A DNA stretch of 61,310 nt, filler included, from Sluysia triapertura (Eukaryota): assembly GCA_046118255.1 (NCBI GenBank). It is 4 parts of 4 records of this genome, joined end to end, with 100 filler letters (N's around TTAATTAATTAA, not from the genome) between each part and the next. Parts side by side here need not be neighbours in the genome. Positions count along the whole stretch, not along the records: positions 1 to 13,151 come from JBJNIA010056216.1; 3 more parts are not named here. One strand, 5' to 3'. Positions within the stretch are counted from its first letter, which is position 1. Each line of letters opens with the position of its first letter. This document shows positions 3 through 58,314 of this stretch, in pieces. The notes under the pieces were generated by a model. It had not been told where the DNA came from. It worked only from the letters and a program-made list of their open reading frames with translations, and made no database searches. The position numbers and the translations under genes are program-made.

Positions 3-1780
3 ATGCTCACTAAAAAGAATGTAACATTTAAATGGACTGAAGAACAAACTAAAGCATTCAAACAATTAAAAGAAAAATTAACAACACCTCCAATTTTAAT
101 GTTTCAAGATATGAACAAACCATTTACATTAAGAATTGGTGCTAGTAATTTTGCTGGAGGAGCAATACTATGGCAGAAAAATAAAGATAACTTAGAAGGA
201 GTAATATTATATGCAAGTAGAAGATTAAATAAAGCGGAAATGAATTCTACAATAGAGAATGTCTAGCTGTAGTATATGCTTGCAAATTATTCAAACATTA
301 TTTATTAGGTCAAAAAGTATATTTGTATACCGATCATAAACCATTAACTTACTTGTATAACCATAAAGATGAGGTTTACAAAATTGGCAGAATTTGATTT
401 ACAAAAAGTATATAAACCTGGTTCATTAAATAATGGTGCAGATTGCATGTCTCGTCTAACTAATACAGATGAACAAGGAAATGTAAAACAAATTAAACTT
501 TATTGAAATAATGGCTATATCTGGTAAAATTGAAGAATCAAAAGAAATCATTAAACATCAAAGAAAAGATGAAGAAATGATGCATGTATTTGAAGCAATA
601 GCTAAAGGTCTATTAAGCGAAGAACAAGCTAAGAAATTAGCAATAACTGATGGTATATTGCGTTTCAAAGATCCTAAGGATGAATGGAAAACGATAATAC
701 CTAAATCATTAATAAGTCCTCTATTAATTCAATTTCACGATGGCCATGTTAGGTGGACATTTGTCCACAAGGAAAACATTATCAAGTATTAAGAATAAAT
801 ATTATTGGGATAATATGGATGAAGATATAAAACATTGGTGTAAGAACTGTGCAGTTTGTTGTAGAAGAAAGAATACTGGAACGAAAACTAAAGTACCATT
901 AAACTAATGCCGATACCACTTTCACCGATGGAATTTACTGCAATGGATATAATGGGCCCATTACCCGAAACAATTATTGGAAATAAATAAATAATAGATT
1001 ATTTAACAAAATGGCCCGAATCATATTCACTATCCAATCAAAAAGTTGAAACAATCGCTCACATACTGGTAGAAAAAATAATATATCGGTATGGCACATC
1101 TAGAAAGTTATTAACAGATCAAGGAACTAATTTCACTAGTGATGTAATAAAATCAGTCGCTAAAATGTTTAATTTTTGAAAAAATATACTTCGCCATACC
1201 ACCCACAAACAGATGGAATGGTAGAAAAATTTAATAGAACTTTAATAAACATGCTTCAATCATATGTAAATGAAAGACAAAAAGACTGGGATCTTTATAT
1301 AGCTCCATGTTTATTCGCATATAGAAATTCAGTTCATCCAGCGACAAATTTGACACCATTGAATTTAATGTATGGAAGACACGCGAATATGCCTGTTGAT
1401 TTAGAATGGGTACCACTATCATCTCAATATTTAGAAACTCCGGAATACATAACAATAATGAGAGCAAATTTACAATATGCTTGGAAACGCGAAGGTTTAC
1501 AAATACGACATACTCAAGAAACGTATAAAGATAATTATGATACAAAAGCAAAAGCACATAATTTTGAAATTGGAGATAAAGTATTACTGGATTATTCAAT
1601 AGCGAAACCAGGATACTCTTCAAAATTACATAAACCATTTAATGGACCATATGAAGTGATGAAAACAACGTCTACTAATATATATATTAAAAAACCAAAT
1701 GATATAAATGCAGACTTTTGTAGCACATGTAAATCAGTGTAAATTAGCACCAAAAGAAGAATATAACTTAAGAAACACAA
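3..1780 (+). pseudogene. pol: Gypsy pol: RT connection/RNase H and integrase (zinc finger, DDE core, GPY/F)
   Basis: FKWTEEQTKAF..LTTPPIL; YASRRL; LAVVYACKLFKHYLLGQKVYLYTDHKPL; YYWDNMDEDIKHWCKNCAVC; MDIMGPLP; LLTDQGTNF; YHPQTDGMVEKFNRTL; KLHKPFNGPYEV; split by frameshifts and stops. Confidence 0.95.
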
Positions 1781-1889
1781 AAGTTACAAAAAGTATTTTG
1801 AAGGTTAAACCAAGAACCATAGATAGAGATAAACCACCTTCACCAACAAAGAAATCTTCCGAAAGTGAAATAAAAATGATAACTTCTTC

Positions 1890-2215
1890 ATTCAACTCTC
1901 AAAGTCATTTAATACTAAGTATAAAATTTAATCAAAGATAGATGAGAGCACTTATAGATACCGGATCTAATAATACAGCAATAAATTACTATATGTTACA
2001 GCCTTCAGAAATAGTGACGATACAAGATGTAGGATTAAGATTATTTACAGTAGATGGATCAATTATAAAATTTAATGGAATGTTACAATGTCAATTGATT
2101 ATTTTAGATATAAATAGGTGCACCAATAGTAGTTTGGAATTTTTGTCCTTATGAAATATTAATAGGTATGGATGTTATAAGTAAATTAGATAATATTGTC
2201 ATTCATGGTAGACTA
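1890..2215 (+). pseudogene. Retropepsin-like aspartic protease domain downstream of integrase
   Basis: RALIDTGSNNTAI (catalytic D-T-G), flap-like LFTVDGSII, and after a frameshift CPYEILIGMDVI (ILG-x-D motif); same frame as the integrase tail QTFVAHVNQCK, one TAG at 1939-1941. Confidence 0.8.
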
Positions 2216-2379
2216 TGATTTCTAAAGATGTCAGTAAATGCATAAATATCTTTACCACAAATCGTATTAGATAATTCGCCAAGACCATCTATAACTACAC
2301 TAAATTGGAATAACTTAGATTGGTGGGATAGAGATACTACAGTGACATCAATATCTGGATTAGAGTTGAATCATTAAAT

Positions 2380-4480
2380 ATATCAAGAATAGAAAATAAC
2401 AATGGTAATGATGAATATAATAACAGTAATACTAAAAGTAGTATAATGCTAATAAAGGGGATACAGAATAATAATAAATCTCTTTATATTATTACTTTAA
2501 TACTATTATTTATACAAGTAATAACCATGGTAATTTCGAATCCATCAAAATTGATATCGTACACTAATACTACACAAGGATTCTCTGTAGAAAATACTTT
2601 TAATCGGTATTGGTCAATAGAAATAGACATAAAAAATGAAATTCCAAAATATTATTTAGATATGTATTGAATCTATACTAATCCATTCTTAATGAAACCA
2701 CCTTCATAAATAAACAATAGCTATTACTGTGAACATTCAATTTATTAAATTACCATTTTAATAATTTCATTACTTAATAATAAATCCCAAATAGAACAGT
2801 TTAAAGATATGTTTAAAAAAAGTAATAATATAACTATTGAAGATTGTAATCAACCACTAATAAATGAACCATTGATGATCCAAACAAGGAATAATACTAT
2901 TAATACAAATAAAACTACATCAATTAAACAAAAAGGGGATAATAACTATATTTTTATAATAATTCTTGCGATATTTACTTTGCTTTATTTAATGTCTTCA
3001 ATTTATTACAAAGTTGTTTGTAAAAAGAGTTTATAGATCCAAATATTTTGATTTTTACGATTACGACACAAAGATACAAGTTAAAATATTTGATAACAGT
3101 ATCTAAGCACAATGTATCTGTATAAACCCCGCAAGATTTAATTTCAGTATATGGAAAGTTTACAAACAAAGAATACATAAAAATGTATATCCCCAACAAT
3201 TTGCAGTGGTTTTATGGCAACGGATGATAGACACTTAGTTATGTTTGTAAAAAGTCATGCTAAAGCTATTCAACAATTACACTATTCAATAAAAGGTAAA
3301 CGGGAAAAAACAATTATTATAAAGAAGTTGCATAAGGATCCATCAATAACAATTTTATTAATTGCAGGTACTTTATTTATAATAGCAATAATAAGGGCAT
3401 TATTAATGATTGGTATATTTATTACTACTAAATGCAAAAACACGCATTTGTCAAACAATGATGATAACAATAATCACTATTCAATTCCACGAAATCATTC
3501 ATTCTTTGCTCCTCTAGGACCACCAATGATACCACCACCAATTTATGATTATAATAGTAAAACAAGAATTCCTACACATTATAGTGGAATACAGGTGTCT
3601 TCTGTTTTACTTTGTATTTGCTTAACTTGTATTTCTGATACTTATATATCAAAAATCACGAAAAATAGTATAAGTAGAAGAATTCTTTATTAAAATAATA
3701 TGCAACTGTCAATTCAATCAAAACAGATGAGATAATAGCTGTTATTAAAATAATAGAAAAGAAACTGATATATTTATCAATACGATGTTGCCTGGAAAAT
3801 GGTGTATTACATCAACCAATCCGTATAAAACTACTAAGTACTGGATAATTAATTGTGAAGAATTATTGGAATTTCAATTTCATAAAGTTACTATAACTAT
3901 TGAATTAATAGATAGGACAATATATACACAAAATCATTGGATTCAAACCAACCCGTATATATACTTTGATAAAATAGCGATAAAATTCTCAATATTAGCA
4001 AAAGGGATGGTCATAATTTAGTTAAGATAACAAATCCATTAGAAAACAACTCAGATATTATATAAATATAGTATATACTTATGGATTGATAGTACAAAAA
4101 CAAACAGTCAAACGAAACTATTAAGCTGATTCGTTATTATCAATAATACACGTATGGATACTTTAAACTAATGAAACATTAAAATTCTATGTATTTTGGC
4201 CGTTTAAGACACCTTTCAATCTAGTAATACATATTTCAAACATAACAATAAAAAGGTACGTAAGTACTACAAGAAGAAGACATTAAAATCCTAGTAACTA
4301 AAGATAATACTAAAATAACTAATCTACAGAACTGTAATAATTAACATCAATTAACATTCAACAAAATGATATTAAAATTAATGTATATTTCTACATCTTA
4401 ATAAGTATGCTTTATTCTAAACTTATGGTTAATATCATCATAGAAACTATCATAAAATTTGCACTAAACAAAAATAACCT
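2380..4480 (+). pseudogene. Env-position membrane polyprotein (serial signal peptides/TM anchors, N-glycosylation sequons, PPxY)
   Basis: ORFs at 2446, 2809 and 3214 share one frame; hydrophobic stretches YIITLILLFIQVITMVIS, YIFIIILAIFTLLYLMSSI, ITILLIAGTLFIIAIIRALLMIGIFIT, SSVLLCICLTCIS; sequons NTT/NIT/NNT/NKT; PPPIY at 3532-3546. Confidence 0.6.
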
Positions 4481-4791
4481 AAAATACAAAAATAATTATT
4501 TAAAGACCATTAAAGTGTAGGGCATAATGACGTGTGAAAAATGGGCAGTAATCAGTTGGATTTTCTTCTGTCTAACAGGCTGCCCAATTCTAATACTGTC
4601 ATTTAAATTGTAAATATTAGCTGTTAGGATTTTTGCATATATAACATAATTTTTAAGTTTTAACATATATACAGTACAATTTTTAAGTTTTTTAATAAAG
4701 AGTTTAATAATGATTTATTATTTACTTTAATATTATTATTATATTTCGTTTTATTTCATTTTCTTTTACTTCTTTTATTACATTTTAGAAA

Positions 4792-5200
4792 ATGGTTTAC
4801 AAACGTTGCCCCATATACCAGAAATGTATACACAAAAAATACATAAAAATGACTCCATGACACATAGGGCCCACTTTGAGTGTATGATAGGCCTTTTCAA
4901 ACATTTCGTAGAAGAAACAGTAAATTGTCCTCTTTGTAGGATTCAACTTATAAGTATGAATGTATTCCGTAAGGGAACTTTTCTTTACGAATACATCTTT
5001 GAAAGAATTCTACCACATATATTGAAAAGAGGAATAAAGGTACAGGAAGTGGAAATAATACAACCAGAGGAACTCAATAGAAATACTTCAAACACTTTAG
5101 TTGTTCCTCCAACAAATTTCCCTCCTGAGTTGAAGAAATCTCAAAAGCATAGCTGCCGACATAGGGAAGTGTGAAAATTCTACAAGCTGGCAGGACTATA
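4792..5200 (+). pseudogene. RING-H2 zinc finger (E3 ubiquitin ligase-like) accessory gene of the retroelement
   Basis: From ATG 4792: MVYKRCPI(Y)QKCIHKKYIKMTP, a 1-nt deletion at a Cys codon (~4858), then THRAHFECMIGLFKHFVEETVNCPLCR; C3H2C3 spacing once two lesions are repaired. Confidence 0.75.
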
Positions 5201-5397
5201 AAAAAATATCAAAGATTAAGAAAAAATAAATCTTTAAAGAAAAACAATCAATAATTTAATTTCCTTCAATTCTTTTCTTTACTTTATTTTCCTAAAATAC
5301 ATAAAGATAAAATTACCAATTATGAACTAACGATTATTTTTTCATTGTTAACAATTTTTATATATTTTATGTATTATTCTTAGATTTATAAATATCT

Positions 5398-6600
5398 ATG
5401 TCGGATTATCAACATGCACATATAATAAACAATATTAATTCCTTCTATAATGGAATAAACAGATTTTGCGGTAACAGTGATACTCCATTTGTATTCTTAG
5501 ATTCCAAAGCAACTCCAAATTTTCTGAAAAATGAAATGGATATACATTTTATTACTTACCTCTATGGAGTAAAAGCTTTACAAGCACCTTTGAATATTCA
5601 AACATTAGAAGGCTTTCCAGTAGGAAAAGGTATGATTTTAATAGCATCAGCTAGAGGAGCATTGAAAGTAACTTTATTTATTAATAATCTTCCTCTATAC
5701 TCTCGTATACAGGGATTATTAAAAATATAAAGGAAAGTAGAAGCGGAAGAACTACCAATAACATTTGCTGTTCTTCTCGAATCTGATGTTGATAACATAA
5801 ATGTTTGGCAACAAGGTTTAACTTTCACACATTTACCCTACGAAGATATAGCTAATAAGGATTATTTAATATTTGTAGCAATTAATTTGGCTTTGGATTT
5901 TCATGATACACATCAAATTATTCGAGCTGGTTTTACGCCATATCACAAACAATATCATTCTGAAGAATGAGAATTAAGAACTTTCTCAAAGTAGAACATG
6001 GATTAAAGGAAATTGATTTAAAAGATGCGAGAGATATTGCAGAAATATCATATACATGTAGCTTGCTTACCGGAATTTATTATTAGGACATTTCAAATAC
6101 CTTTTGGATGGTTACGTGGCATTATCAATTTAACTTCTACAAATTTCATCCGTCAAATCGCGCTAGGAAAGTATTAAAACTTTTGTGTCCATTTCCGCCG
6201 AGAGATACTTGCACGAAATTAGCACAAGATTATATATCACTTTTTGAATTGATTAAGCAGAGAAATGCATCATTTTTGCCGCAAATAATTGATCAACATT
6301 TGAATAATCAAATTTCATCTACTTCTGCAGCTTCTTTTCTATTACATAATAAAAATTCTGCACAAAATCTTCCACATAAAGGCAAGAAACATTAAGACAT
6401 AACACTCTCCTTGTTAAATGATATGGTCGACGAAACCGCATTGAAGAGACGGAAAATCGAGAATTCGGCAGATAACTAAGTGGAAAAAGGAAATAAGCAG
6501 CAAGTTGATAGTTTTGAAAATTTCGGTACCATTGATTTAAACCTGGATGGTGACGATTTCTTTGATTATGACGACTTTATTTATATGACAAATATTTAAT
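5398..6600 (+). pseudogene. Unknown ~350-400 aa accessory ORF of the retroelement, with an acidic C-terminus
   Basis: Frame 5398-5730 continues past TAA (RKVEAEELPITFAVLLESDVDNINVWQQGL...); further pieces at 6108-6395 and an acidic tail DLNLDGDDFFDYDDF; coding-like composition. Confidence 0.55.
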
Positions 6601-6688
6601 TTTTGATTATATTCTAATGACAATTTTTTTCCTTTATTATGGTAATTTCAATTCATTAGTCATTTAAAATTAGGGACTAATTTTTCCT

Positions 6689-6702
6689 GAAGGGAAAGTT
6701 AT
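6689..6702 (+). promoter_or_regulatory. Polypurine tract (plus-strand primer)
   Basis: gggactaatttttcctGAAGGGAAAGttat directly before TGTAAA, the typical Gypsy 3' end context. Confidence 0.75.
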
Positions 6703-7071
6703 TGTAAAGTTATTTTTAAATATCTTTGTTTAGTATTAGTAAATTAAATTTTTATGGTAAAATAAAATTAAAAAACAAAAGTTAATAGTATTTTTAGTAT
6801 AGTATTAAAAAACAAATAAATATTAAATATTAGATATTTAAATTTATTAAATCATTATATATTAAATATTTAAAATTATATTAAATAATATTTATTTTAA
6901 TATTGAAATTTATTTATAATATTTGTTCTAATGAATTGAAATTTATTTGTTTTAATGAATCATTATTATGTTGATATGAACATTAAACATTAAAATTACT
7001 ATATAAATAGCTTTTTGGACAGAGTAAAATTTATCAGTATTAACTATATTATTTGTTAAGAAGAATTTACA
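6703..7071 (+). repeat. 3' LTR (~370 bp)
   Basis: Starts TGTAAA after the PPT, ends TTTACA (6-bp inverted termini), TATA-like ctatataaatag near 7000; the 5' LTR is outside the window, so the end is unconfirmed. Confidence 0.6.
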
Positions 7072-7339
7072 TTTAAAGATTGATTTTGTCACAACAGAAT
7101 TTGGGAAATTATATTTTCGAAGAAAATTAAAAGATTATATTATCCACAAAAGAAATTATATTAATACGAATTTTTTGAAATTGAAAAATCATTAAGTATT
7201 TCTTTTAAGATAAATCAAAATTATATATAAAATATACGTAAACTTACTAACAAATTAAGTAAAATTTTGTACGATATAAAATAATTTATAAAATCTGTAA
7301 ACTATTAAATATTAATTAATAAATTAATATTTAAAATAT

Positions 7340-7780
7340 TTTATTATATTATACTAAAGGCTCTCAAATGCTTATCGATATTTCAAGAATACTTAAATGT
7401 TACTAAAGTCTTCATTGTTCTAAAGTTCAAAAGTACCTTAATGCTTCTAAAAGTTCTTCGAGTCCATCTCAAGCTTCCATGAGGTCTCAAACCTTTACAT
7501 AGGTCTTTGGAACTCCAAGGTATTCTTTGACTCTTAACATTATTATGGATGTTTTTTCCTTTCATGATTCTTATACAAACGATGATTACAATGTTCAATC
7601 CATCATTTTGTATCAGTTTTTCTTTCATCTAATAATTCTACATGTTTCTCATTCATCTTCTGATCTACAGTTGGGCAATCCCAACACTTACACGTACATA
7701 TTCACACATAAACTCAAATTCACCTTATTACACGAACACGAAATCATTACAATTAAAACTGAAATTCATAGGTTATGAGA
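7340..7780 (+). repeat. Dispersed repeat family A, copy 1
   Basis: Shares ttcaagaatacttaaa with 12070; catctcaagcttcca..aggtctcaa..cct matches the reverse complement of 26790-26845. Confidence 0.7.
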
Positions 7781-8596
7781 CTTAATATAATAAACCACAG
7801 CTAAAATCTTAACTCTATGTAAAATCAATAATACATATTAGGAAGTTCGATAAGCGTCACATGCTTTGTTACTAGTGAAACTGCATCATTCATTGCCTTT
7901 ATTTTGTTACTGCACCCAGTGGAGAGACCGCCACTCCGGTATTACATGTCGTTGTGAGATTGTATTATGTTGTTGTGAATGTTCACTTTTGTTTTTGCCG
8001 GGGTTGCGATTTTTGTGTTTTTCCTTTTTTATTCTCATTATCATTAATATTATTTTATTTTTTTATTACTATTTTTTTATTTTTATATCACAATTCTTAA
8101 TAATATCGATAATTTTTTAAATATGCAACATGTTACTACTGAAAATGATAAAGTCGAAGGCGTTACCTTTCAAAACTGTTACAAGAAAACCGAGAAATCG
8201 AGATTACATATGCTATATTTTACACGTCGAAATCATCTTTAACAATCTCAATTTTTGGAGAAGTGCCATTTTACTATAATAGCTATAATTTTAAAACATC
8301 GCAACAAATGGAACGTCGGAAAACCTACATAAAAAAAGGGAATGTTCAAATTATGAATTCCTATTGACGAAACATGTTTCGGAAAGCTTTATAATTGATG
8401 TTATTGCTTCGGGAGACAGTTTATGGGGTTTTTATCGAATTTCCAACAAATAAATCTGGAGTTTTGCCAATTGTTTATTGTTAAACACGATGGAACCATA
8501 TTACAAGATAATATATACATTATGTCAAATGATTATCAGTTATATTCATGGTACTCACGAAAAATATGCATTATGGACATCGAAGGCTAAGATAAT

Positions 8597-9255
8597 ATGA
8601 ATTATGATGACAAGTTAGAACTAGATGTCTTTAATAATTTGAATGATTTCAGTAAAAGAAAGTCATCCACTGATTCACGTCTAAAAGATAGTGAAATTCA
8701 AAAATTAAATATTCCAGAGAACCACATTTATATAGATACTGGCCAATGGCCAAGATACATGACAGACGAAGAAGTTGATGCTTATTTTAGTTCTAAGCCT
8801 CTTAATGTAAATAAATCTAAAATTAGAAAATCGAAATTGAGTTAGTGGCTAAAAGATGCCGAAAATTTAGAAATTTATGGAAATGAATATTCAAATTATT
8901 TTAAATTTAGTGCTGTAAGATATAATGAGGGCATGAAAAATGGGATATTCGAATTAATCGAACTACCACTTTCAAGCGAAAATAGTTTAAATATTAAAAA
9001 ATATAAAGTATATTTAAATTCTAATGAAGGAGGAGATCAATAATCCAGTTACCGTTTTTCCTGTTAAAGCTACAAAAGTTTCTGAATTTATTGGATTAGT
9101 TTGTTGGACGTGTACTGAAGAAAATCGAAATCCCCGAATTTCGAAGAAATCATTTCAAAATTTTTAAGTTCATATGTTTGAAGATTTTTAAGTATGAATT
9201 ATGGATATTTCGTTGATACAGATTTAATATATAAATATTGTGAAGGTCTGAAGTA
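8597..9255 (+). pseudogene. MAPKAP1: SIN1/MAPKAP1 (TORC2 subunit) N-terminal and CRIM domain fragment
   Basis: HIYIDTGQWPRYMTDEEVD; KSKLS*WLK..NEYSNYFKF; KKYKVYL; NPVTVFPVKATKVSEFIGLVCWTCTEENRNP; VHMFED..VDTD, resembling SIN1 PMTVV..RVQDLIGLICWQYTSEGREP..LHIAEDDGEVDTD; stop 8843, stop/frameshift ~9041. Confidence 0.75.
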
Positions 9256-9340: not shown

Positions 9341-11689
9341 GTAGATAAAAGTAAAAAGAATTTTCTCGAAATGCAATGTAAATTTAAAAACTTCTTTATT
9401 TGGTTTTATTATTATTACTATTACTTTTTTGAAATTTTTAGTAAGTATGGAGGTTTATAAAAATATAATCAAAAAATAATTTAATTGATATTTTACGTAG
9501 ATCCTATGAAAAATATCGTTAATAAGTATTTTACATAGTTAGAATTAAAATCTAACTATGGAAATCTTTTTCGTAGTACTGATTTTATATTTAAAACTAT
9601 TTAATAAGAACGAAGAAATGTTATCGAAAATTTTATTATACAATGACAAAATGATAATTTATCATTCCGTTACAAAATGAAAATAAAAAATAATATAATT
9701 TACGAGATAATTACTATAAGTAATTCTTATTTCGATAATATTTTAGTAAAGGATTTTTCGTGGATCTATTATAAGATCCAAAATAAATATTAAATAGTTT
9801 ACGTGGATTTTTCGTGGATATCACTCGGATATCGGAACTTATTATAAATAAACTAACGGTTATTTTATTAAATCAAAGGTAAATATGGTCAAAAATCTTT
9901 ATATTGGCTCCCGATATATCGAAGAAAAACCACTATGAGTGTACCAAAAATTTATTGTCGAGAAATTATTGGCAGAATTATTTATTTGTTGTTGTGAAAC
10001 TGAAATTTATTTGTTCATTATGTATAGGATTTATTGACCTTGACCAGATTTGAATTTTAATTTATTAAAATAAAAATATAAATTTTTAAAATTAAATGAA
10101 AATTAATATTTAATATTTACAAATTTTATAAACAAAATTAATATTTAAAATATTTACAAAAATAACAATGAAAAATAAAACATACTTTTGAAAAGTCCAC
10201 AAAAATATCATTTGAATATTAATAATAAAAATTCCATAAAAACATTATTTGAATTCCACAAATATTCAGCAGATATACAAGTCAAAAATAAAAATATTCA
10301 GCAAACACACATAACATAATAGTTCATAGTTCATAATACAACATTAACAATATCAATTCACTCCCAAAATTAAGTTTTTAAATCAAATTAATAACAGCAA
10401 CAAAAATCAAATACAAATTACTATTATAAGTGTTCACGTACAATGATAAAAATAACTAAAATTACATAATTAACAATAACATTTGGAATAATATTGGCAG
10501 CACAATAATCCATATAACAAAACCAGGAGTTACGCAACAAACAATTAAAATATCAATATCTAGAAAGTTAAAAAATATGATAATGCTTAAATATTTTCAG
10601 ATAATCTTAACCTAACTTAATAATTGTTAGAATCAATTATAGAATCAAAAATCAAATTTATCAGTTTTCTATAAACAGATAAAAGTAACAATAAAATTAT
10701 TAAAATATTTCAAAGTAACTTTATTTTATTTTATTTTAACTTTATTTTAGCAATAATTATAAAAATTTGATCAGGGATCCTCCCAAAAAACAAGTTTATG
10801 AATATCTAAAAAAGTTAAAATTAAAATTACTAAAATTAAAAATAATAATGAAATTTATATATGAAAATGTTTCAAAATGATAACCACAAAAAATCATATT
10901 TATTTATTAATAATTTAAAAACTATTATGGTTTCTTATTATTACAAAAATTGCTATTATAAAGCCAGCTAAAATATTTTCCTTAAAAATAATTTATTTAT
11001 TTTATTTTATTTATTTATTCTTTTTAAAATAATAAAATAATAGAAATAAAAAAATATTACCATATGCATGGATAATCTCCTGTTGGATGCCTGTACGATT
11101 GTGTTGTAAAATTTTTAAGTTTTTCATTTTATGCTCTCTCATTATCTAATTAATCTCAAGCCTCACAATAAAACACTTTCTCACACAAATCATCAAAACT
11201 TCTTTGAGAATTAGACTGACAATAACAACGTTGACAATTACATTAGGTACAGCTTCATTAGGTACAAAACACAAAAATTTGATTTATTATCAAATATCAT
11301 TTTCTGTTACTCTACTCAATCCCTTTTTACTTAAATTACTTCTCACATTAAATAACAACCAATAATATTATTAATATACATTAAAAAAATGAATTTAATT
11401 TTAGAATTTAATTGATTTTCAATTTTTCATACCCAATCGTCTAATAAAAATGTTTTAAATTTCTTATTCTCAAACAAACCATTCTACAAACATTTTAAAC
11501 TCACTTGTAGATTCTCCTTTTTCATAGCAGTCATCTCATATTCCATTCATTATATTTGTATCATACTAAGATTAAAAATTCAACATTCCATAATTAAGAA
11601 TTAATTAAAATTTAACTTTGCTCAATATTAAGCTTTCCTTGCATGAACTTGGTCAAACCATACTTTCATCAAAAGGTCTTTTCAAAACA

Positions 11690-25600: not shown

Positions 25601-25852
25601 TTATTTAACAAATTAGAAAACATTTTATCTAATATTATAATGTCACTAGAATTGAAACAATGTTTTGTTAGCTTCATTAAGTAGCTTATACATATCCTGG
25701 TAACAATTATTTAATTCTTTGTAGTTAACATGTGGCGTATTGTATGAATCTTTAGCATCATTCATTAAATGTTTTATACCATTCTTAAAGTCTTCTTTAT
25801 TTATTTCCTCATTATTGTTTAATAATTTACGAATATATCTTTTTGAAGTCAT
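22603..25852 (-). CDS. THADA: THADA/Trm732 (tRNA Nm32 methyltransferase regulator, DUF2428), 5' part; exons 25852-25692, 25645-24240, 23618-22603 (861 codons, open)
   Basis: SNAPEGY, LLVCCWRSCKEISILFG, THKGAFE, TRRSAGLP; GT-AG introns of 46 and 621 nt restore one frame; donor gtaagt at 22602; no downstream exon found. Confidence 0.88.
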
Positions 25853-26437: not shown

Positions 26438-26537
26438 NNNNNNNNNNNNNNNNNNNNNNNNNNNNNNNNNNNNNNNNNNNNTTAATTAATTAANNNNNNN
26501 NNNNNNNNNNNNNNNNNNNNNNNNNNNNNNNNNNNNN
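26438..26537. other. Assembly gap with linker
   Basis: N44-TTAATTAATTAA-N44. Confidence 0.98.
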
Positions 26538-26639: not shown

Positions 26640-27215
26640 AAATTATGTGCACCTTTACATGTCCAATCGTTGAATAAGAAGCGAGTAAGAAGCATGAAGA
26701 TGCAGGAAAAATTAGTAGAAATTGATGGATACAACATTATAACCATTTCCGGAATAAGAATCATGAAGATTTATAATATTGATATCTTGGTGTTCCAGAG
26801 ACCTATATAAGGTGTTGAGACCTTGTGGAAGCTTGAGATGTACTTGGAAAAACTTTCAAAGCACCCTTGAACTTCTGAATCTTGAGATAATTTAAGACCT
26901 CATTGACCCTTAAGTAATGTTGAAACCTTGATAAGCATTTAAAATCTTTTAATAACCTTATAAAGTTTTGAAATCTTTAAAATATAGTTGAAATAAATCA
27001 GAGTGGTGAAGACGAAGGCATCTAGAACTTCCAAAGCACTTTATAAAATACTAAACAGTTTTAGAACCTTAATAAAACCTTTAAACATAAAAATAAGATT
27101 AAGTCTAAAAATTAATTAATTAAAATCTTAATTGACTTAATTAAGAAAAAATACATCACTGAATAACATTTGAATGCAAAATGGTGTGCCAAAATGGAAA
27201 CTGTGTATGTTTTTG
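26640..27215 (-). repeat. Dispersed repeat family A, copy 3 (inverted)
   Basis: Reverse-complement similarity to 7340-7680 and 11690-12090. Confidence 0.7.
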
Positions 27216-29188: not shown

Positions 29189-29299
29189 AATCTTGTTATT
29201 TTAAACAAAAATAAAAATAATAAAAGTAAAAATAGTAATAACGGTAATAATAATAAAATTTAAAACAGTAAACATATAATAATAATAATAAATTATAAC

Positions 29300-31166
29300 A
29301 AAACAATTTTAATTCCGTCTTTTGAATTGACTGATTAATCGTATGATGTGGTCTAGCTTGTTTACCACGAGGTTGAAATTTAATAGCACTTATGTGATCC
29401 ACTAAATTATCAATGAAATTATAACAAACTTTCTCAGGCGTGTAGATTAAAAAGTGAATCGCTAAAGTTACGGTTAATTCATTACTTTGATTCATTTTAA
29501 TAAGACAAAAATAATTCGTATTGTTACTTAGATCTAATTTATCCGATTCTGGATGTGATCCAAAGAATCGAACATAAATACTGTTTTCTTTTATAACAAA
29601 TGAACAAATAGTATTTTTCAGCAATACATCTAATTGGACTAAGCTCTTCCGACATTGTATCGAATCAAACTTTTTTGTTATTTGGTTAGGAAAGCATAAA
29701 TTGTCAGGTGACAGGTGATCATGTTCCATTAATACAGTAATAGCAACCTTGTGCATACAATACACATGTTCAAAATAAATCATATTGTGCCAATAATTAT
29801 AAAATTGTTGTTCCAAATGATCACATGGTTGATCTGTTTGAGAAATCGTGGGCTTTAAGCCATTACACAATGAAGATGGAATATTACAATATAGACTTTG
29901 ATTATATTGGCAAAAGAAATCTGTGTAATACAACATATCGTCGATTAGTTTCGAATGAATTAATATACTTTGATCAGTACAACGAACTAAATTTGATCTA
30001 ACCAACTTACTGTTGTAGTAAAATGCTGTTAAGGAAGAAGTTAATTTCCTTTGTTGCTCCAATGGCAATTTTGTACTTATAGAAACTTTCATTGAAGTAT
30101 CAGAATAAAGCATTAAAATCATTTCTATATCCAATTTTTGATTATTTATGCTTAAATTAGATAATATGTAGCCCATGTTGAAAAGAGATAAAATTAATGT
30201 TAATGGAGGGATATTGAAATTCTTTTCATGCAAACATTTAATTTGAACTGTGTCTGAAGAATTGCGAAAATCTACTAAATCAAAACATTCTTGGCCAATA
30301 ATATTTAAAGATTCAGTTAACGATTCATTTGAAAATATATATTTACCACCAGTAGCTCTACAAAGTAACTTCAATATATTGTTTTCAGCATGACTTTCAA
30401 TGTCACCAAATTCTTCATAAATATTATCACAGCATACATTTATCACGTTCAAATTAATACTTAAAAACCGCATCAAGCTTAATATGTTTTCGTATTTTTG
30501 CCCCCTTGGAATTTTCATGTTAGCATCAGATATAATAAATGCACTTTTAAAATCAAAATTTTTGTAACAGTCAAAAATTTTCATTGAAACTATTGCATTA
30601 TCAATTATATTATATAAAACATTCTTGGAGCTACCTGTATAATTAGTTTTATAAACAAATGTTTTATCAAAAATTCCTTCAAAATAAGATGACAAATTAG
30701 ATTCAGTAATTAATGATCCACGATCAACTATGACAGTTTGAGTGTTATCAAATAATATACAAGACAGTAATAAATTTTGATTTAAATTTTTAGAATGACT
30801 CGAAATTTTCTGTAAAGTGTTACGTAATAAAGATTCAACTATTAACAAACCAGTTAAAATTTTATTTCTACCAAAACTGGATATATTAAACATAGACTGA
30901 CGAATATCAATTAAAATAGTAATATGACATTGTTCGCTTAAAAAAACAAATTTAGGTTTTACTGAAGAGAATGTATTCGTATCACAGGTTTCAATATTAT
31001 AATCCAACAACTTATAAGAATTTGATTCATTTAAGCCGCGCCTGATGTCATCTGAATCATCCATAAAATTATCAAATTTCTCTAAGAAATGTCTTATAAA
31101 TTCATCTTTTGCAAATAAACACATTCTTTTAAGATAAATAATGAACTCTTGAACACATTCACTCAT
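29300..31166 (-). CDS. SZT2: SZT2 (KICSTOR scaffold) N-terminal ~620 aa; first exon or truncated copy
   Basis: FVFLSEQCHITILIDIRQS, SAFIISDA, LKLLCRATGGKY, LMEHDH..FDSIQCRKSL..SFVIKENSIYVRF match the SZT2 N-terminus; the ORF tail to 29196 is Tyr/Phe low complexity. Confidence 0.85.
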
Positions 31167-32132
31167 TTTTGGTTATGTAAAAAATGTAACAAATATCATA
31201 CTAAAAAAAACTATTCTGCAGCTAATAATAAGCAAAATAAATTGTATAATTTATTAAACTTAATTAAAATATAAGAATAGTATTTCATTAAAGAAAATAT
31301 AAATAAAATGAAAATCTATATTGCTCAAATATTAGTACTTATTGCATTTATTTAAAGAAATTAAATTAATAGCAGAAATAAATTAGTTTAAAAAAATTGA
31401 AAAAAGAATTAATGTAGTCTTTATCTGCCTAAATAAAACTTATTTATTTCAAAGTTTCAGCAACTTGTTTAAAATATAGAGATCATGAAAAATAATTTGT
31501 TTTTATTATGTATGTATTGCTTACCACGTAATTCAACTACAAATTTTTAAAAAATTTCACTTTTAAAATCATAAAGTGCATGGATAATTAAATTTATAAA
31601 ATTTGTTTAAAGTAGATACATAGTGGTGTTATAGCAACATTTAAAATTCACTATTTTAATAATATTCACTAAGAATAAAATAATATAATATTAAAATTAC
31701 AATGAACTTTAATTGATTTTGAAAATGATTTTAACGATTAATTTAAAGTGATCAGAGAAATATTTAATAAATTTGACTTCATTTGATGTATCGTTTCAGG
31801 ATTCCAAACTTGTAAATATAATGGGTTTGTGAAAAACAACTTAAAGATTCATTGATGGATGATTTGATGAAAGGCTTATTCTTAATATTCTTAATTAGAA
31901 ATATTGAGTTCACCTACGATCCTAGTTTTACTGACTTAAGGGCTAGTCCGTGGTGCTGGTATTTTATGAATTACCTGAGGGATCGGTCCACCTAATATAT
32001 ACGCTTTATACCAATTCTGGAGACGTATTATTAGGGTTTTATGCTCAAAAATTTATATTAGATAACTTACTGACTGATACAACTAAATAAGATTAAGTTA
32101 CAACTTTTCAGTTTAAGATTTTATCAAATTTG

Positions 32133-39344: not shown

Positions 39345-42300
39345 ATGGGTAAAACATCAAAAGATAAGCGCGATATATATTATCGTTTAGCAAAAGAAGA
39401 AGGTTGGCGTGCTAGAAGCGCATATAAATTATTACAAATTAACGAAGAATTTAATATTTTTGAAAGTTTATTTTTATTTAAATTGTTTGAACTAGAAATT
39501 AGAAAATAACGAATTAGTAAAACGTGTTGTTGATCTTTGTGCCGCACCTGGAAGTTGGTCTCAAGTTTTATCAAAAAAACTGTGGCAAAGTAAATCTGAA
39601 GAAGCCAGAGATGAAGTCAAAATAGTAGCTATTGATTTGCAGGAAATGTCACCTATTGAGGGAGTATTTCAGGTTTTGTAAATAAACAATATTTTAATCA
39701 GATTTGTAGTTACAAGGAGATATAACGAATGAAGAAACAGCAGAACAAGTTATTTCACATTTTCATGGTCAAAAGGCCGAATTAGTTGTATGTGATGGTG
39801 CACCTGATGTTACAGGTTTACATGATATTGATGAATTTATCCAACATCAGTTGGTTCTTGCTGCTCTTAATATAGTAACTCATGTATTAGAATTGGGAGG
39901 AACATTTGTAGCTAAGGTATTTCGTGGACCTGAATCACGACTTCTCTTTCGTCAACTTTGTTTATTTTTTAAAAGTGAAGTTATTTGTGCCAAACCGAAA
40001 AGCAGTCGTAATTCCAGTTCAGAATGTTTTGCTGTATGTCGCGGATACCAACCACCTAATGGTTATGTTCCAAATATGTCTAACCCGTTACTATTAGGAG
40101 ATTATAAAGAAAGTAAGCAGATTTTATTTAATAATTTATTTACAATAATTTAAAGGAACTAATTTTTATAGTTTAAGAACATTTTATATATGAATTACTC
40201 GAGATATTAGTAATAAATTTCTGTGATTAAAATAATCGAAATTATTGTAAAGGTCAAATTATTTTCAAAGGACGTCTAAACAAATTTCAGATTTTATCTT
40301 CAAACAATTATTTGCCTGAATTTTTCTGATCTGCTTACTTGTCAAGCTTAGTAGTTTTTTCTTTCATCATATATTTGTCTTGTGCTCTGTCGCCATAGTT
40401 TACCATAAGTGTATTTCGAATTTAATTTAAGTATTTCTTCATCCTTCGAAGATAGGCTATCTGCTTACATAATTTTGGTGTATCAGATTCATAAAATTGT
40501 CGAATGCAATTTTATCGGAATAAAGTGAAACTAATATAAGACCATTCAATTTATTAAGTTATACTATTTATCGTCAAATACTCTGTTTACTACCAGTATT
40601 TCTAATCGGGGCAGCTGCATTCATACTATGGCGTATATGTTAGTGGGTAGGTTTCACATTTGCCTTTCTTTACCACTGCATAATCATTATGAAGCAAATA
40701 GATAAGTATGATTGCAAATATTTTCTTTAATTTAGCTTTTCACAATTATTTTCTCAACAAAATTTAGTTGAAAATCATTAAGAAATGCATAAGAGAATTT
40801 GAGGAATTTAAAATCATCATGGAAATCGATTGTTTTGATTTGTTTATTAATCGATTTTTTACTAGACAACTTTTCTATTCGGGAATATCTGATTTTCACA
40901 TTACTGAGTTAAGGTAATGCGTCATAGTTAACTTCTAATCCATACCCACTAATTTCCTAATAACGTGGTTAATTCGAAGTCAATTTTTAATTTCATTTGA
41001 ATTCATAAATTTTCATTATCTGTCTTTATAATTTTGCATAAACAGCGCATAGAACCCTTTTTACTTATTATTCTATCCAAATACTAAAATAAAGCCCTAA
41101 AACACTATCGATAACATTCTTGAAACACTTTCAATTGCTCTGATTATTGTATTAATATCGTAAATTTAAGGGTTCTCAGTAAAACTACATAGGTTTTACG
41201 ATTCATGTAAAAGTTTGAATGCATCCAAAATGTCTAAGTTTGTCAAATTTATGATAAAACATCGATTTAGTTTCCTGTTATAAATCATTGCAAACACTAC
41301 GTTCTTAGAACTTTTAAGATTGTTGAAATAATGCTTAAAATTTCAATTATCAGTTGTTTATTCAAAAATTTCTATTGTCATCTACCAATAAGTATGTATG
41401 AATTGCATATCATGCGCGTCTATCAGAACCTACAATAAATAAACGAATTTGGTCTACTATATAAAGAGTCGTGAAGTCAAAACGATTTTCATGAAACGTA
41501 TTGCGATAAAAACTTGTGAAATATAAATTAATTGGTAGGCGGAGCATTAAAAATGCAAATATTAATTTATCAACAAACTAATTCGACCCTTTTTAATTTT
41601 ATACAAAGGGTTGACCCAACCAGGAAACATTATATACAATTTAAAAGATAAAATTATTTAAATCTATAACTATAAATTACTAAGTCAATTACCATCGAAT
41701 TTATAACAAAAGAAACAAAAATTGGTTTATCAAAAAGTCTAAAAAATACCTCACTTCGAACTAATTCCTTTTCTTTCGTTGGTAGAATAAATTGATCGTT
41801 TGATAGTTCACCATCCATAAACATAATGAAATGAGGGATAATATGATATTCTCAATAATCTGACAACCCAACCGTTACCGCATGATGGATAATTACCAGA
41901 ATTTTTTTAATATAATGCTAACATTGGTGTAGGGTATTTTAAGAAGCTCACATTTAGAATCATTTCATGATACATCTTTGTCAATTTATTACCACACGGT
42001 GATATCGTACAAAAGTGATGAATATGACATGTACGAGTAAAACCGTCAAAACAGACCAAGTAAGTATCACAATAATAAATCTCGGCGAAAAGTTCCTAAT
42101 CACTGTTCTGATGTAGCATTTAAATACCATTTTCTTTTTTATCGTCCACAAACAAGCATATATTACTCTTCATCAAACAGACATCTTTATTCATAAAATA
42201 ATGGATCAATAGATTAACACACACGCCCTCTAATTCCACACATCTTACTATTTCCCTATTTGTTTGAAGTATCTTATTTGATATATCACCGTCATACCTC

Positions 42301-47528: not shown

Positions 47529-47628
47529 NNNNNNNNNNNNNNNNNNNNNNNNNNNNNNNNNNNNNNNNNNNNTTAATTAATTAANNNNNNNNNNNNNNNN
47601 NNNNNNNNNNNNNNNNNNNNNNNNNNNN
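47529..47628. other. Assembly gap with linker
   Basis: N44-TTAATTAATTAA-N44. Confidence 0.98.
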
Positions 47629-57601: not shown

Positions 57602-58314
57602 GTTCGTTTAGTTTATTAAGAAATTAAAGTTTCCAGTTTATGTGTTTTAGTTTCAGTGTCCTATAAATTGCAAGAATATTTAGTGAACGAATATATAATG
57701 TAAAATTTATTAAATACAATTTTAATATTTTATTCTTCAGTTAAATTTAAAATGGTTTATGTTTCATTTTGTGGTATCTTTCTCTGTAAAGTTGATAATT
57801 GGATACATTATAAAGTGATGTATCTCTTATATTTATTCTCATCGCTTACATAATTAAAATTATCTTTATCGTAAATATAAGATCGTTTTTAATTACTTTA
57901 AAAGGTTTACTTTCTATTAGTGTAACATAGGTCATTAATTATGAACGAAGCCAATTTTTAGTTTATTAATACTGATTCTTTTTTATCTTCAGGGACTTTT
58001 TCCCTGGCAACAAGACTTTTGTTTTCTTACATTTAGCATTTTAGAATAATATTTTCCTATGTCATCAAGCTATTTCCTCGGTAAAAGCGTTATGAATGTA
58101 TTCCAAGATTGTTTATCATTATTACTATTTCCTTTTATTTCTGGATCGGCACTCCAGTTAAATAATTTTGAATTCTTTTAATTTTTGCGGCTTCATTCCA
58201 GCTATTAGCTTCGGCGATGCTATCATATTCAAATAGAAAATCGCAGAGATTCTCCAGTAAATTTTCTCATTTCAAGTAAAGCCATCTTTTGGCTAATGAG
58301 CAATGTTTCTTTAA

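Follow-up and report, generated by a model that had tools for sequence, protein, structure and literature searches.

The textbook view gives LTR retroelements and retroviruses a single protease, and canonical Ty3/Gypsy elements possess one protease only. Retropepsins release themselves from their precursor. Several proteases per polyprotein occur in potyviruses (P1, HC-Pro and NIa) and in coronaviruses (papain-like proteases), where they release themselves or their neighbours, while Ginger transposons bear a cysteine-protease tail behind a Gypsy-like integrase. For Ty3/Gypsy elements, the available text of a published account follows the one-protease scheme (PMC5408684). Giant Gypsy elements of planarians, Burro/GYPSM1, are described in the accessible part of their account as encoding one polyprotein with Gag, CCHC knuckles and an in-frame Env between gag and pol, followed by a protease (PR), a spacer termed dUTPase-like, reverse transcriptase (RT), RNase H (RH), integrase (IN) and extra domains including ankyrin repeats, in ORFs of 4,873–5,140 aa (PMC6431247); a Ubi/SUMO-like motif has also been reported for Burro. 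Likewise, GAG-ENV-POL errantiviruses are known in Platyhelminthes, Bryozoa and Nematoda, according to the available portion of that work (PMC13524379). The literature searched, a scope outside which the original Burro paper, Sacco et al. 2022 and Repbase lay, held no description of an extra or post-integrase protease in such elements.

The window analysed here is a stretch of 61,310 nucleotides, filler included, from the Sluysia triapertura assembly GCA_046118255.1. It opens within a decayed copy of a Ty3/Gypsy element, with pol already underway at its first positions; the order is RT-RH-IN, and the integrase contains the H2C2 and GPY/F domains, as detected by Pfam and tblastn. The features of pol and of the protease behind it are as follows.

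3–503, plus strand: end of the RT connection and RNase H, broken (Pfam RT_RNaseH_2, E 1.7e-22, and RT_RNaseH, E 1.8e-9, on 3–263; tblastn with relatives, 6–494).
746–901, plus strand: integrase H2C2 zinc-binding domain (Pfam Integrase_H2C2, E 5e-11, on 764–901; tblastn from 746).
898–1715, plus strand: integrase core and GPY/F (SH3-like) C-terminal domain, in frames 1 then 3 with one stop (Pfam rve, E 6e-6; SH3_Tf2-1, E 0.015).
1717–1776, plus strand: integrase tail and Y-x-L-R motif (sequence; tblastn of P0007, P0009 and P0010 to 1711–1794; relatives' sequences).
1777–1902, plus strand: basic/Pro linker, open in frame 1, ending in a putative N-terminal processing site of the protease at ~1870–1884.
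1903–2200, plus strand: retropepsin-type aspartic protease, pseudogenised (TAG stop 1939–1941, DTG 1957–1965, frame change ~2105–2125, ILIGMD 2156–2173).

The fusion of protease to integrase tail proposed in an earlier note from the sequence alone was borne out in its details. The tail FVAHVNQCK (1717–1743), the basic/Pro linker and LIDTGS share frame 1, read from 1708 with the TAG as the sole stop between tail and Asp, and ILIGMD follows in frame 2 past the frame change. The integrase core, in frame 3, is out of register with the tail, which places another frame change near 1710–1720, so that the path from core to protease crosses two frame changes and one stop; over 3–2215 as a whole, tblastn and the sequence indicate several switches of frame. 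Since relatives read unbroken at all three places, these lesions represent decay rather than programmed recoding. The Y-x-L-R motif after the integrase tail was found in relatives' sequences across the family, and similar flanks in these relatives led us to postulate the processing site at the linker end. Pfam detected no chromodomain after GPY/F, either on 1173–2215 or in the family proteins, and no purine run of at least 14 residues that might represent a polypurine tract occurred in window positions 2000–9000.

A retropepsin behind the window integrase is real. LIDTGS (1951–1968, catalytic Asp codon 1957–1959) provides the D[ST]G triad after a hydrophobic strand and aligns with 25 family proteases, and ILIGMD corresponds to the C-terminal hydrophobic-hydrophobic-Gly motif, lying ~70 residues past D[ST]G at profile positions 73–103 of a domain of ~100 aa. 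The catalytic Asp stands 77 aa from the integrase tail, within the 53–80 aa observed in nine relatives. The profile search that the earlier note had proposed recovered the retropepsin: a local profile of the 25 family proteases, seeded partly from the relatives' own matches, scored 45.9 bits (E 2e-13) and 17.7 bits (E 1e-4) on the two window pieces, the next best among 822 six-frame window tiles being 3.1 bits. Pfam gag-asp_proteas reached E 5e-4 on this broken copy, at 21 bits against a cut-off of 28.2, and HIV-1 protease matched weakly (E 0.003). A homolog search using the window linker and protease alone passed none of 204 candidates.

The window copy is a dead fragment whose own upstream half lies outside the window, and the case rests on intact relatives. 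Three integrase-anchored searches, yielding 78 of 164 candidates, the best 150 of 95,031 and 15 of 1,866, gave 224 proteins, the third search covering proteins up to 3,385 aa. These relatives include a family with 43–57% identity to the window integrase (57% to P0001 over 1188–1715), from which 23 proteins were examined, leaving out the short fragments P0014, P0093, P0102 and P0146. In integrase trees the window fell inside the family clade with supports of 95/95 and 100/99, and its nearest relatives were P0001, P0002, P0079 and P0219, all of which contain the IN-PR fusion, its exact place being modestly supported (86/83 and 54/93). P0005 and P0084 are labelled as proteins of bacterial metagenome-assembled genomes (Turicibacter and Flavobacteriaceae), and probably derive from eukaryotic contigs binned into bacterial genomes. 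A contig scan with P0084 for the DNA of a relative confirmed none of 21 pattern matches. Some distant matches combine integrase, protease and a second RT in one model (P0096, P0161 and further multi-pol cases); we took these for tandem or chimeric gene models and did not count them as relatives.

Intact copies of the fusion, which the note had recommended looking for, are present in the family: nine of the 23 proteins carry IN-PR in an unbroken ORF, in nine a signal-like segment comes directly after the integrase, and five end too early. Pfam placed the post-integrase protease independently in P0001, where RVP reached 29.9 bits for a cut-off of 20.7 and the domain exceeded three Pfam cut-offs; the domain was likewise found in P0003, P0079 and P0219, with weaker matches in P0002, P0220 and P0223. 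The second-protease alternative raised in the earlier note is supported by the four IN-PR relatives that extend upstream of RT (P0080, P0220, P0221 and P0223), every one of which also holds a canonical pre-RT protease; the canonical enzyme is present in all nine relatives with a complete pre-RT position, and as a remnant in P0010. P0223, complete at 2,871 aa, reads Gag, CCHC, Env, PR, spacer, RT, RH, IN, PR, signal-like segment, ectodomain and transmembrane (TM) segment. P0080, P0220 and P0221 contain three proteases (Env-PR-zinc fingers-PR-RT-RH-IN-PR), and P0219 has three protease domains after the integrase, around ankyrin repeats, one of them without a catalytic motif; ankyrin repeats also occur in P0079. 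Of the 17 accessory protease domains, 15 preserve the D[ST]G motif. In P0079 (residues 948–1044) and P0219 (1189–1288) a catalytically dead protease domain lies immediately behind the intact post-integrase protease, and could act as a pseudo-dimer partner or regulator. The extra protease is not required, because nine relatives do without it. Beyond the family, P0135, a distant Gypsy protein with the order PR remnant-RT-RH-IN-chromodomain-Env-like region-TM, has a second protease above the Pfam RVP cut-off at residues 2097–2190, a single sequence that possibly represents an independent origin.

Within the family the proteases fall into two classes. Leave-clade-out profile tests separated canonical from accessory proteases in 25 of 25 cases, and a conserved spacer of ~95 aa, detected with a profile built from seven canonical cases, follows 10 of 10 canonical proteases and none of 15 accessory ones. 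No dUTPase was found by Pfam in this spacer among the family proteins. The first post-integrase protease of P0003 groups with the extra pre-RT protease of P0080 and P0221 (99/99) and is accompanied by the same coiled-coil and zinc-finger module, while the post-integrase protease of P0080 and P0221 groups with the second one of P0003 and the pre-RT extra of P0007 (93/87, unstarred). These relationships between predicted domains demonstrate that accessory protease types switch between the pre-RT and post-integrase slots. When the post-integrase protease was mapped on the pol tree (LG+G4), four changes were needed, a count by which gain and loss are indistinguishable, and a single origin without loss (monophyly) was rejected (p-AU 9e-42). 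Membrane modules are mobile as well, since P0009 has a signal-FN3-like-TM module before the canonical protease (residues 48–231) and another one after the integrase.

The position of the window protease within this scheme is intermediate. The protease phylogeny suggested by the earlier note separated canonical and accessory classes in the family, but left the window protease between them in the tree of family members only, and its row unplaced when 14 outgroup proteases were included. Class scores were 62.1 bits for canonical and 60.7 for accessory, the best pairwise match was the canonical protease of P0084 (39% over 70 aa), and a grouping with the post-integrase proteases of its own sub-branch was neither supported nor rejected (p-AU 0.21). 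As judged from these comparisons, the window protease may have arisen by a separate duplication of the canonical enzyme.

This intermediate character bears on two other readings of the locus. According to the first, the sole protease has moved in the window's sub-branch to give RT-RH-IN-PR with none before RT, as the earlier note had envisaged. The likeness of the window protease to canonical and accessory enzymes in equal measure agrees with such a move, and so does the fact that no sub-branch member shows the pre-RT position: the remaining five IN-PR proteins, the window's four nearest relatives among them, start inside pol and are uninformative in this respect. However, no relative gives support to the relocation, the post-integrase proteases of those four nearest relatives classify as accessory, and P0219, a member of the sub-branch, keeps by eye the spacer that elsewhere follows the canonical protease. 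As all four informative IN-PR relatives retain the canonical pre-RT enzyme, we consider a relocation improbable, and the window protease to be, with high probability, an addition to the pre-RT protease. The second reading would make the protease the opening of another copy's pol, nested or in tandem behind the integrase, a possibility that the canonical-like sequence of the window protease and the chimeric IN then PR-RT models among the distant matches P0096 and P0161 might recall. It is largely refuted and very improbable: neither the pre-RT spacer nor RT follows the protease in 1700–7000, the short open linker with its family motif and family spacing has no space for an LTR, and the same fusion is unbroken in nine relatives.

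In six of the nine IN-PR relatives the ORF continues unbroken from the protease through a signal-like segment and an ectodomain to a TM segment, and the window layout after the protease is, by hydropathy, that of the relatives.

2488–2538, plus strand: hydrophobic internal signal-peptide-like segment (hydropathy 2.69), placed after the protease as in P0002, P0080, P0221 and P0223.
2539–2949, plus strand: putative ectodomain, broken, between two hydrophobic segments.
2950–3000, plus strand: transmembrane-like segment (hydropathy 2.55), then basic residues in the sequence.
3373–3546, plus strand: second transmembrane-like segment (hydropathy 2.89) and Pro-rich tail with a PPxY motif (3535).

The signal-like segment is reached only via further stops and a frame change. 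Segment 3373–3546 is probably a further accessory membrane module, which we infer to belong to the element; the A-rich skew continues to ~4400, and hydropathy revealed further hydrophobic segments at 4548 and 4727. Behind the one at 4727–4777, RING-H2-like motif remnants without Pfam match occupy 4800–4945 on the plus strand, in frames 1 and 3, and may constitute another accessory module. More broken coding-like stretches, without Pfam match, are seen at 5392–6578 on the plus strand.

The membrane protein downstream is distinct from the Env, because in seven relatives (P0080, P0084 and P0220–P0224) the fusion glycoprotein lies in frame upstream of pol, with matches to the gB/chuvirus-type Env PF24664 at E 1e-83 or better. 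The integrase trees are what ties the window to these Env-bearing proteins. Gag/CCHC was found in P0222 and P0223. Upstream of Env, P0220–P0222 show a ubiquitin-like region, with a weak UBX match in P0222 (E 0.006), reminiscent of the Ubi/SUMO-like motif of Burro. The ectodomain repeat of ten relatives is predicted to adopt a beta-sandwich fold (pLDDT 89), the PDB matches of which were nearly all to fibronectin type III (FN3) domains (best E 4e-4, TM 0.64), while the ectodomain of P0013, P0223 and P0224 is, by eye, of another, cysteine-rich type. A search of the ESM Atlas with the P0002 ectodomain gave no usable match. The window ectodomain did not match the profile of the family FN3-like repeat, nor did eight downstream stretches match Pfam; over the whole window the best score of the repeat profile was 9.9 bits uncorrected and 4.6 composition-corrected, with none downstream of the protease.

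The window has a GC content of ~25%. Its parts are separated by identical joints at 13152–13251, 26438–26537 and 47529–47628, each formed by 44 N, a 12-base palindromic spacer and 44 N, so that host genes beyond 13251 are not necessarily adjacent to the element. Host exons lie in 14901–15367, 22576–25710, 29196–31172 and 39710–40153, identified by Pfam as ST7, THADA/DUF2428 and FtsJ methyltransferase, and one host exon of 658 aa without Pfam match is presumably SZT2-like. A dispersed repeat at 7326–7655, 11688–12090 and 26671–27215 has copies 69–78% identical in both orientations. A weak match to the P0223 Gag at 58248–58016 on the minus strand (E 0.001) is probably a remnant of another element copy.

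The front half of the intact relatives thus reads Gag, signal, gB/chuvirus-type Env, TM, optionally an extra protease with zinc fingers, and the canonical protease; the rear half reads spacer, RT, RH, IN, optionally an extra protease, sometimes with ankyrin repeats, signal-like segment, mostly FN3-like ectodomain, and TM. In the predicted proteins, the one-polyprotein architecture, the intact catalytic motifs, the two protease classes and the patchy, mobile extra proteases are well documented, and they allow a mechanism to be proposed. From hydropathy, the signal and TM segments would put Env and the ectodomain on the lumenal side and Pol in the cytosol, leaving Pol tethered at both ends, by the Env tail ahead and by the second signal segment behind. 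The canonical protease would free the front end of Pol, while the extra protease would cut its own N-terminal flank and downstream of itself, allowing the integrase and the accessory modules to leave the rear tether. Where the extra protease is absent, the junction might be cut in trans by the canonical one, which would fit the patchy distribution. The polyprotein could take in a protease-led module while Pol still matures, which would fit the shuffling, and the extra proteases would in this way act as leaders of self-excising cassettes. The role assigned to the second protease in the earlier note, processing of the downstream membrane polyprotein, survives in part: the tether would be cleavable, but the ectodomain would be out of reach of a protease that is cytosolic by the inferred topology.

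Taken as a whole, the explanation of the window protease as an accessory retropepsin, leading a self-releasing cassette in a decayed planarian-type, Burro-like Ty3/Gypsy element, seems to us reasonably likely. Its release step, the detachment of integrase and modules from the rear membrane tether by the extra protease, we would put at slightly better than even. More speculative and rather doubtful is the idea that the elements are reverse-transcribing viruses in which two or three paralogous retropepsins share out the work, with self-excising cassettes, each a protease together with zinc fingers, ankyrin repeats or an FN3 membrane protein, hopping between the pre-RT and post-integrase positions, and with the distant chromodomain lineage of P0135 acquiring its second protease independently.

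The absence of the extra protease from nine of 18 informative relatives, even between close sisters (P0223 with it, P0013 and P0224 without), and the catalytically dead copies kept by P0079 and P0219 could also suggest that the enzyme, a real feature of the family, is aimed at host proteins or merely travels with captured modules. Burro-type elements do bear many host-interference domains (PMC6431247). However, the first post-integrase proteases keep a narrow distance from the integrase tail (Asp at 53–80 aa), and the other extra proteases lead a module or precede a signal-like segment, behind flanks resembling processing sites. This agrees with a role in processing, and we consider the alternative unlikely.

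If the more speculative reading with hopping cassettes were correct, it would offer a general route for giant single-ORF elements to capture host-like genes with Pol maturation preserved. Two to three intact retropepsins per polyprotein, in shifting positions, provide a testable answer to how Burro-type elements can pack Env and many accessory domains into one ORF with Pol still maturing, and the family supplies natural paralog pairs for work on retropepsin specificity. Annotation tools that expect one protease before RT will misread such elements as nested insertions. The value of the window copy itself lies in the family to which it points.

In comparison with known systems, the family shares with canonical Ty3/Gypsy elements (Metaviridae) the order RT-RH-IN, the H2C2 and GPY/F domains of integrase and, in relatives, the retropepsin before RT. 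Unlike in chromoviruses, the post-integrase extra is a protease with a membrane protein and not a chromodomain. Multi-protease RNA viruses and Ginger involve other protease classes and other element types, and serve as an analogy only. With Burro, against which the family was set by description, it has in common Gag/CCHC, the in-frame Env (PF24664) and ankyrin repeats. It differs in the protease after the integrase, since the available Burro text names a single protease and none behind the integrase (PMC6431247), and in size, the proteins from Gag to the last TM, among those of up to 3,385 aa covered by the search, measuring 2,694–3,181 aa (P0222–P0224) versus an ORF of ~4,900–5,100 aa in a Burro element of >30 kb. 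Because this ORF length falls short of that of Burro, we call the family Burro-like rather than Burro. The same gene order and Env type as in the family are found in GAG-ENV-POL errantiviruses with an HSV/gB-type Env, such as Smed_errantivirus_1–6, and Schmidtea Env segments resemble by eye those of P0080, P0222 and P0223; that work, in its accessible portion, scores chromodomains at the integrase C-terminus, and neither extra proteases nor a post-integrase membrane protein were seen in it (PMC13524379). As deduced from their predicted proteins, Gypsy polyproteins with several proteases, among them mobile accessory retropepsins, are real, and constitute a family-level variant of known Gypsy elements.
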